Source: an uncultured Candidatus Saccharibacteria bacterium (lineage in GTDB: Bacteria; Patescibacteriota; Saccharimonadia; Saccharimonadales; 2-12-FULL-41-12). From it: 64,000 bases of DNA. A program made the position numbers and the translations under genes. Every line of letters begins with the position of its first letter. Position 1 is the first letter of the stretch. The notes under the pieces were generated by a model. It worked only from the letters and a program-made list of their open reading frames with translations, was not told where the DNA came from and ran no database searches. Below, in pieces: positions 50,552 to 50,759 of the stretch. Location of the stretch: NCBI GenBank assembly GCA_947085855.1, contig CAMTYB010000001.1, forward strand, positions 405,788-469,787, in the 5' to 3' direction.

Positions 50552-50596
50552 AAAAAAGCTTGGCACACCGCATTTCTGCGTTCGCTATGCCAAGCT
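50552..50596 (-). terminator. intrinsic terminator (AGCTTGGCA ... TGCCAAGCT + T6) within or at the end of a structured leader
   Basis: On the minus strand, a 9-bp outer stem (50596-50588 pairing with 50565-50557) encloses an inner CGCA-GAAA-TGCG hairpin. Six T residues follow (50557-50552). Confidence 0.7.
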
Positions 50597-50759
50597 AAAA
50601 AATTCAATTGTGTTGATAGCTGCAACCGCCAAACTCACTTACGTTAGTGAAGCTTGGCACTATACTCCCAAAAGCTATTGCTTTTGTGCTTTTATTACAG
50701 CCCATCCACCCAGCGCCTGTCAATCTTGACTATATGCTCGGTGCTGATATACGTAGCTT

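Follow-up and report, generated by a model that had tools for sequence, protein, structure and literature searches.

Whether a short spacer can specify an RNA that chooses between two folds, and thereby controls the gene behind it, is the question raised by a locus in a 64,000-nucleotide (nt) stretch of DNA from an uncultured Candidatus Saccharibacteria bacterium (contig CAMTYB010000001.1; the whole stretch is referred to as the window). The spacer, which is 243 nt long (50517-50759, minus strand), separates the gene at 51236-50760 from the gene at 50516-50187, the latter encoding a coiled-coil protein of 109 amino acids (aa). The original prediction was based on an 11-mer, GTGCCAAGCTT, said to occur twice on the minus strand, and this repeat is indeed found, exactly at 50660-50650 (X) and 50566-50556 (X'), together with a segment Y (AGCTTGGCA, 50596-50588, minus strand) that is a perfect 9-nt complement of X. 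Pairing of Y with X' was proposed to form a terminator, and pairing of Y with X a mutually exclusive antiterminator. The reading favored here, to which we assign a probability of roughly 60%, is that the spacer encodes a 5' leader RNA that is conserved and equipped with a promoter and a terminator of its own, in which two exclusive folds would control transcription of the coiled-coil gene. The leader appears to be a new, lineage-specific terminator/antiterminator element outside the described families, in which we infer the switching.

In the single sequence, the minus-strand spacer folds at -80.6 kcal/mol (z = -5.4, with 0/200 shuffles as good), and in the minimum-energy fold X pairs not with Y but with a segment Z that was absent from the original prediction, while Y pairs with X' just before the T run. 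The repeat itself is weak evidence, since by chance a sequence of 64 kb should contain approximately 1.7 direct repeats of an 11-mer at a distance of up to ~110 nt (64000 x 110 / 4^11) and the 7-mer GCCAAGC is threefold over-represented in the window (35 copies vs 12 +/- 3.4 from dinucleotide shuffles). The excess of GCCAAGC probably reflects a codon or word bias and is not an explanation of X, Z, Y and X'; an origin from uptake sequences or repetitive extragenic palindrome (REP)-like elements was considered and rejected, as the 35 copies are scattered over the window and have no extended motif in common. The signal rises above chance because X, Z, Y and X' hold their position and sequence in 16 relatives.

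These relatives are 16 distinct versions of the locus from metagenome-assembled genomes (MAGs) of Saccharimonadales, with protein identities to the window of 53-96%. All 16 spacers sit upstream of the same coiled-coil gene (100-123 aa) and are 233-410 nt long, and the gene order is constant in all contigs that are long enough, namely Gln-rich membrane protein, spacer, coiled-coil gene, convergent gene, DUF1361 and arginyl-tRNA synthetase (ArgRS). A spacer of this length in genomes this compact suggests a non-coding element. The order of elements within it (promoter, P1, X, Z, GG, P3, Y, X', U tract) is identical in 16/16. From 5' to 3', the blocks read TCAA(T/G)ATTGACA, 17-19 nt, TnTAAT, 7-8 nt, the hairpin P1, GG(R)RYRYA, X (GCCAAGCUU), a variable insert, Z ((A)UUGGC), GG, the hairpin P3, a C/A-rich linker usually with ACAAU, Y ((A)AGGCUUGGC), 11-24 nt with an inner stem in many, X' (GCCARGYCU) and U5-7. 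The Y segments of the window and of relative L002 were misplaced by both MAFFT and covariance-model alignment, which was remedied by cutting out anchored segments of fixed length and joining them into an alignment free of gaps.

R1, a covariance model derived from these sequences, matched 50551-50696 of the window with 100 bits (E ~1e-21), which was its sole match in the window, and it gave one match per related locus; with all filters off, no second copy of the motif was found in the 64 kb. A 26-bit match of R1 in L029 was discarded as an unrelated AT-rich terminator. A pattern scan of metagenomes returned 70 loci, of which three (L055, L056 and L058), all at the coiled-coil-gene locus, are true, and the other 67 were dismissed as chance matches, nearly all in G+C-rich coding DNA. 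The scan of a genome collection with a protein profile gave three loci, one of them a duplicate. The earlier statement that no known riboswitch class is recognizable agrees with the Rfam 15 covariance models, which matched nothing in the window at the gathering score and nothing in the region 50400-50900 at E <= 10.

The proposed terminator, consisting of Y, X', an inner CGCA-GAAA-TGCG hairpin and a T6 run at 50557-50552, is present in the window and in 16/16 relatives. It spans 50552-50596 of the minus strand and comprises Y (AGCUUGGCA, 50588-50596) as the 5' arm, which is the complement of both X and X', followed by the inner CGCA-GAAA-UGCG (50580-50569), X' (UGCCAAGCU, 50565-50557) and the U tract. 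The hairpin alone has a folding energy of -20.7 kcal/mol in the window and of -12 to -23 kcal/mol across the 16 sequences, it is directly followed by a U5-7 tract in 16/16, and it is part of the full-length minimum-energy fold in 16/16. A stable hairpin with a U tract is the anatomy of an intrinsic (Rho-independent) terminator, and transcription would be expected to terminate here. The loop, at 11-24 nt and in many cases with the inner stem, is longer than usual, and a simple terminator scan missed the hairpin. Within the helix, double changes affect 3/10 pairs, and G-U pairs are frequent. The terminator fold as a whole (P1, outer P2, P3 and Y:X') is paired in 94.7% of the alignment cells, with nine pairs that change on both sides (22 cells), values reached by 0-1/500 shuffles, and sliding of the register drops the pairing to 28-57%. 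Across the 16 sequences, Y occurs in 7 variants and X' in 12, and the lower variability of Y is as expected because Y has two partners.

A rival account of the locus is that the hairpin merely terminates the upstream gene 51236-50760 and that the X copy is a chance repeat. This fits with the number of 11-mer repeats expected by chance and with the commonness of GCCAAGC, and in the window there is no other terminator between the upstream stop codon and the hairpin. However, X, Z, Y and X' are conserved in the 16 relatives when the promoter spacer and the stem loops are not, the conserved promoter lies 5' of the hairpin, and L008 and L009 have a hairpin-forming repeat after the upstream stop and before the promoter (seen by eye and unscored), which makes this account very improbable.

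The promoter-like sequence TTGACA-18-TGTAAT (50723-50694), noted earlier as a possible feature, is likewise present and is conserved in the relatives at a fixed distance from P1. The -35 hexamer TTGACA (50718-50723, minus strand) is exact in 15/16 relatives and TTGACG in one, the -10-like hexamer TGTAAT (50694-50699, minus strand; consensus TnTAAT) is aligned in 16/16, and the two are separated by 17-19 nt of sequence that is not conserved. The -10-like hexamer ends 7-8 nt before P1 in all relatives. Two conserved hexamers with a free spacer between them and a fixed distance to P1 therefore form a promoter pattern, and in comparison with the sigma-70 consensus (TTGACA, 17 +/- 1 nt, TATAAT) the -35 agrees and the -10 departs at position 2. 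Transcription would start at ~50687, about 7 nt past the -10, so that the putative leader RNA (50552-50687, minus strand) would open with P1 and extend for ~136 nt to the end of the U tract. The -35 hexamer also overlaps a 12-bp near-palindrome, GTCAAGATTGAC (50719-50730, minus strand), and a palindrome of the form (G)TCAA(T/G)ATTGA(C), 10-12 bp in length, is kept in 15/16 relatives; it could be an operator for a regulator of the same promoter.

The conserved blocks could in principle act as RNA, as a coding sequence or as DNA sites. An open reading frame (ORF) of 33 codons (50705-50604), suggested earlier as a leader peptide, does exist in the window, where it crosses X and ends 7 nt before Y, which speaks for a ribosome-mediated attenuator. 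In relatives, however, it is absent or has other frames or stops, its ATG at 50705 falls between the -35 and the -10 and thus upstream of the presumed transcription start, and the distances between blocks are 0, 1 or 2 modulo three, so that X is read in differing frames. Because the ATG precedes the presumed start and neither spacings nor frames are conserved, a leader peptide is not supported, and of all the explanations weighed here this is the one given the least credence. More generally, a conserved small ORF on either strand was rejected, since no ORF is shared and the block spacings are not multiples of three. Of the overall interpretation first proposed, the terminator, the X:Y alternative, P1 and the promoter are upheld, and the leader-peptide ORF is abandoned.

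Alternatively, the repeats might be DNA operators with the half-site TGCCAAG for a regulatory factor, such as the TrmB-family protein encoded upstream (51328-52092), and X/Z and Y/X' do form inverted repeats of one half-site. The spacings of the arms, however, vary from 15 to 37 nt (start of X to end of Z) and from 11 to 24 nt (Y-X' gap), the inserts stay self-complementary, changes of the G-U type preserve RNA pairing and would break a DNA palindrome, and the TrmB gene is not adjacent in other relatives. The operator reading of the repeats was rejected on the grounds of arm spacing and G-U-type changes, and it is held to be highly unlikely. The stem G-U pairs would be C-A mismatches on the opposite strand, and because there are many of them the strand of the element is taken to be the minus strand.

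At its 5' end the leader has the predicted hairpin P1, CAAAAGC-AAUA-GCUUUUG (50686-50669, minus strand; consensus CAAAAGY...RCUUUUG), the loop of which had been written as 'tatt' in the plus-strand reading. P1 is paired in 97% of cells, has compensatory changes on both sides in 5/7 pairs and has a loop of 4-29 nt; this covariation indicates that P1 is a real helix. A further link in the chain of competing helices claimed earlier, between the 3' arm of P1 and X, is possible as 5 bp (UUUGG:CCAAG) but not supported, both segments being almost invariant. P1 is followed by J1/2 (GGAGUAUAGU, 50659-50668, minus strand; consensus GGRRYRYA...), in which the two G after P1 are (nearly) invariant, and then by X (GCCAAGCUU, 50650-50658, minus strand), which is both the 5' arm of P2 and, as the complement of Y, the putative antiterminator strand. 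X carries GCCAAG in 12/16 and pairs with Z (AGUUUGGC, 50628-50635, minus strand), the 3' arm of P2, over five outer pairs (92.5% of cells). In the window, P2 is a 13-bp hairpin (GCCAAGCUUCACU-AACGUA-AGUGAGUUUGGC, 50628-50658, minus strand) that is found in the minimum-energy fold; among the relatives its apical part varies in length and sequence with self-complementarity kept, and the outer helix shows one compensatory pair.

The end of Z, the GG and P3 together form the most conserved block of the leader (GGCGGUUGCAGCUAUCAAC, 50612-50630, minus strand), which the original prediction did not contain. Its consensus is GGCGGUUGCRRC, in which the CGG..G..C columns are invariant. P3, a hairpin of GUUG (50626-50623), CAGCUAU and CAAC (50615-50612) on the minus strand, is predicted by RNAalifold and paired in 94% of cells, with a loop that usually has 7 nt (CRRCNUA). 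P2 is extended in most minimum-energy folds by pairing of the UUGC (50622-50625) within the invariant GGUUGC to a G-Y-R-R stretch in J1/2 (50659-50668); this pairing excludes P3 (GUUG/CAAC), and the variation seen consists of pairing-compatible transitions only. In the C/A-rich linker, an ACAAU motif (50607-50611, minus strand) recurs 1-5 nt past P3 in most relatives, and its pairing with Z (AUUG), which is frequent in predicted antiterminator folds, was no better than with shuffled linkers (p = 0.07-1.0 per sequence). A U6 run directly upstream of Y (50597-50602, minus strand) is seen in the window and L001 only, and most other relatives have at this place an A-rich stretch that is able to pair with the U tract of the terminator.

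The central claim of the original prediction is the mutually exclusive pairing of Y with X, and this geometry proved to be conserved over 9 bp with compensatory changes. Folding and covariation analysis of X, Y and X' had been named as the test of the prediction, and both conservation and covariation were found. X:Y is paired in 133/144 cells (92%) over the first nine pairs and in 86.9% over ten pairs, it contains four pairs with double changes, its covariation score was reached by 0/500 shuffles, and register slides collapse the pairing to 15-50%. As a control, the alternative helix Z:X' showed no compensatory excess over shuffles in the 16 sequences. Three relatives illustrate how the strands change together: in L007, an A-to-G change at position 5 of X is matched by U-to-C changes in both Z and Y; in L009, AG-to-GA at positions 5-6 of X is matched in Y (CU to UC), where Z offers U-U; and in L084, C-to-U at position 7 of X is matched by G-to-A at position 7 of Y. 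The same 'GG' of Y is moreover paired differently by X and X' (CU vs UC).

The predicted energetics point in the same direction. When the transcript is truncated immediately upstream of X', the minimum-energy fold contains X:Y in 14/16 sequences, and a fold with X:Y beats the fold with unpaired Y by 0.5-10 kcal/mol in 16/16, whereas in the full-length RNA the terminator fold beats the best fold with forced X:Y by 3.7-12.8 kcal/mol in 16/16. According to these models, this is the behavior expected of a kinetically controlled attenuator. The leader thus has an upstream complement of Y that is conserved and exclusive, with no promoter-like site found past the terminator in 15/16 by consensus scan, as is characteristic of attenuators, and the terminator/antiterminator geometry is moderately supported by covariation and energetics.

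Several observations weigh against a switching leader. The covariation of X:Y amounts to a small number of events (6 cells), and the 16 sequences are related to one another; by the tool's own account, relatedness alone can surpass shuffle controls in 5-25% of cases, and the complementarity of X and Y partly follows from the resemblance of X to X'. P2 is local and made first, and it is still narrowly the minimum-energy structure before X' in the window and L002, the two sequences with the longest P2, in which the modeled switch would require assistance or pausing. Neither P3 nor the conserved block varies, so that covariation provides no evidence for their structure. As to the promoter, the -10 is atypical (position 2 is G in 8/16, A in 6 and T in 2), the spacers reach 19 nt, and the consensus promoter scan did not list the conserved TTGACA/TGTAAT. 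The element is seen before one gene family only, by both pattern scan and covariance model, and start site, termination and switching are all deduced from sequence.

On the reading of a switching leader, a sequence of events during transcription can be envisaged. P1 would form first and probably shield the 5' end, after which X and Z would form P2, with P3 forming alongside. The emerging Y could then invade P2, displace Z and take X over 9-10 bp, giving the antiterminator, and in this fold X' would be left without a partner and the polymerase would continue into the gene. Alternatively, the emerging X' would retake Y, forming the terminator hairpin followed by the U tract, at which RNA polymerase would stop. 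Branch migration is possible at each of these exchanges because Z and Y share UUGGC and X and X' share GCCAAG. Read-through would then be decided by whether the exchange of Y for Z occurs in the short time before X' is made. The best candidate for a sensor site is the invariant UUGGC-GG-UUGCRRC block around Z and P3: any factor holding on to Z would leave X available to Y and switch the gene on, whereas stabilization of P2 would switch the gene off. Such a factor might be a protein, a second RNA or a small ligand, or the choice might depend simply on how fast RNA polymerase moves; a protein factor could perhaps be the product of the gene itself, because one leader is tied to one gene. The terminated product of ~136 nt may additionally act as a small RNA.

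Transcription of the coiled-coil gene appears to depend on read-through. In the window, the stretch between terminator and ATG has 35 nt (50517-50551, minus strand) with the Shine-Dalgarno sequence AAGGGGGA at 50528-50521, and this distance is 33-49 nt in 6/16 sequences and 100-181 nt in some relatives. A consensus scan found no promoter-like site between terminator and ATG in 15/16 sequences. Because the stretch is too short for a promoter and a promoter-like site is lacking, the gene would be reached only by read-through. This applies to transcripts initiated at the conserved promoter and equally to those arriving from the upstream gene, after which no terminator precedes the hairpin in the window.

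The same facts bear on the alternative that the element is a stand-alone small RNA (sRNA) gene, that the downstream gene is transcribed by constitutive leakage through the terminator, and that the likeness of X/Z and X'/Y is unrelated to switching and reflects, e.g., two copies of one duplex bound by the same protein. The anatomy is that of an sRNA gene, with a conserved promoter, P1 directly at the start of the RNA and, in 16/16, a strong terminator; the coiled-coil gene begins 100-181 nt past the terminator in some relatives, and the element is tied to a single locus. On the other hand, the lack of a promoter-like site past the terminator in 15/16, together with the 33-49 nt distance in six, argues that, whatever else it does, the RNA acts as a leader. 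Of the shared duplex, only 5 bp are retained in P2 vs 9 in X:Y, and the changes in L007, L009 and L084 track X:Y. A pure sRNA gene is thus considered unlikely, though it retains real weight.

The downstream gene (50187-50516, minus strand) encodes a protein of 109 aa with two predicted helices (residues 7-25 and 28-108; AlphaFold pLDDT 86). A profile search identified at least 204 clusters of homologs of ~100-125 aa, which are unnamed or have generic names and are confined to metagenome assemblies of the Saccharimonadales type. Sequence searches against Pfam, NCBIfam and the PDB gave coiled-coil noise only and no family, and a Foldseek search of the model against the PDB gave no match. The window protein is shorter than most close homologs (115-123 aa), the last ~10 residues being lost via an earlier stop codon. 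The gene overlaps the convergent gene (49636-50190, plus strand) by 4 nt at the stop codons (50187-50190), as is likewise the case in L001, L003, L010 and L084, and because of the overlap there is no room for a terminator between the two genes. The segment UUGGCAUA (50586-50593), which comprises the 3' part of Y and flanking sequence, perfectly complements the start-codon region UAUGCCAA (50510-50517); this may be chance, as judged from the second codon of the relatives, which is CCU, GCA or UCA. In L008, L009, L010, L055 and L058, which have longer spacers between terminator and ATG, a second Shine-Dalgarno-like AAGGAGG lies 30-60 nt upstream of the real one, and in L009 the extra AAGGAGG is followed by an 11-codon ORF that starts with TTG.

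On the other side of the leader, the upstream gene (50760-51236, minus strand) encodes a Gln/Asn/Gly-rich single-pass membrane protein, the C-terminus of which (...LGDxxLP(R/H)TGD(E/P)G(L/M)-stop) is conserved in the window, L005, L007, L010, L013, L055 and L058. It includes an LPxTG-like motif that is followed by only four residues, so that the hydrophobic tail typical of sortase signals is missing. Just upstream of the conserved block, groES/groEL are found in several of L002, L005, L006, L007 and L008, and a gene for HSP20 in L005 and L006, which might be a sign that the locus is connected with stress; in the window, the place of groES/groEL is taken by the TrmB-like regulator.

One specific form that the switching leader might take is a riboswitch for a metabolite or ion, belonging to a class not yet described, with P1, J1/2, P2 and P3 as the aptamer and a ligand that would fix either the X:Y junction (on) or P2 (off). 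The succession of promoter, structured domain, terminator and gene fits with this, stem lengths vary with the junctions conserved, some invariant nucleotides are unpaired (GG after P1, GG between P2 and P3, and the C's in the P3 loop), and there is no Rfam match. Of the presumed aptamer stems, P1 covaries; outer P2 and P3 barely vary. However, the leader precedes only one gene family, which is neither a transporter nor an enzyme, the window has a single copy, and the metagenome pattern scan matched this locus alone. In addition, no tertiary contact or pseudoknot was supported among the 16 sequences, and pairing of the P3 loop with the GGG of J1/2 as a candidate pseudoknot was dropped because the loop, inspected by eye, is insufficiently conserved. 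A metabolite or ion riboswitch is therefore rather improbable. Put more broadly, the leader could be a Saccharibacteria-specific orphan riboswitch or an RNA that senses a factor. The invariant block would sense a small molecule or a cellular RNA or protein, and a two-step strand exchange (Z to Y on X, then X to X' on Y) would turn the signal into read-through of the coiled-coil gene; this is offered as a tentative idea that we regard as unlikely at present.

Should the leader turn out to be such an orphan sensing RNA, it would be among the first native regulatory RNAs defined in Saccharibacteria, a lineage of the candidate phyla radiation (CPR; Patescibacteria). To our knowledge, gene regulation in Patescibacteria is almost unexplored, and a literature search found no description of a native regulatory RNA for Saccharibacteria. 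The element is compact, conserved and easily mutated, and its on/off design offers a handle on the control of transcription in reduced genomes; it also flags a conserved gene, with its at least 204 homologous clusters, that is apparently worth tight regulation. If the effector is a small molecule, the leader could possibly serve as a native inducible switch for the genetics of Saccharibacteria, for which synthetic riboswitches have been suggested as imported tools (PMC11665869). If a small RNA gene with a leaky terminator is all there is, the element would be an ordinary lineage-specific RNA.

Among known systems, the classical leader-peptide attenuators (trp, his and pheA) share with the leader a chain of alternative pairings, here P1 3' arm/X, X/Z, X/Y and Y/X', and differ from it in that the leader has no conserved ORF. 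With small RNAs derived from riboswitches or 5' UTRs, such as SreA and SreB of Listeria, which are terminated leaders with a function in trans, it shares a terminated product that is here predicted to be a stable RNA of ~136 nt, with a hairpin at the 5' end and a terminator at the 3' end, and in contrast to these no target or function in trans can be proposed from the sequence. A T-box leader was considered and rejected, as there is no Rfam T-box match at E <= 10 and the downstream gene encodes a coiled-coil protein with no relation to aminoacyl-tRNA; ArgRS sits three genes from the leader, beyond the convergent gene.

Gram-positive bacteria have a number of terminator/antiterminator platforms, such as the pyr leader of B. 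subtilis with PyrR, the T-box leaders, and the purine and S-adenosylmethionine (SAM) riboswitches. Like these, the Saccharibacteria element is a promoter-proximal leader in which an intrinsic terminator lies shortly upstream of the gene. The 5' arm of this terminator is at once the complement of an upstream segment held in a local helix, and the terminator fold would be the equilibrium state, with the antiterminator available only during transcription. Unlike in these platforms, the antiterminator would use the 5' strand of the sensor helix (X), so that the displaced Z ends up inside the antiterminator loop, and the element lacks an Rfam match, is associated with a single gene and is confined to a narrow lineage of Saccharimonadales. 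Most metabolite riboswitches are not limited to one gene family and usually occur in several gene contexts per metabolite. The leaders of ribosomal proteins L20, L10 and L13 in Firmicutes are similar to the present element in that one lineage-bound leader family with a terminator/antiterminator belongs to one gene family; they differ in that the protein downstream of the present leader is non-ribosomal and has no known RNA-binding domain, and no mimicry of a known RNA site by the leader was identified. By analogy, the restriction to a single gene family in one lineage suggests a closer resemblance to protein-autoregulated leaders than to metabolite riboswitches.

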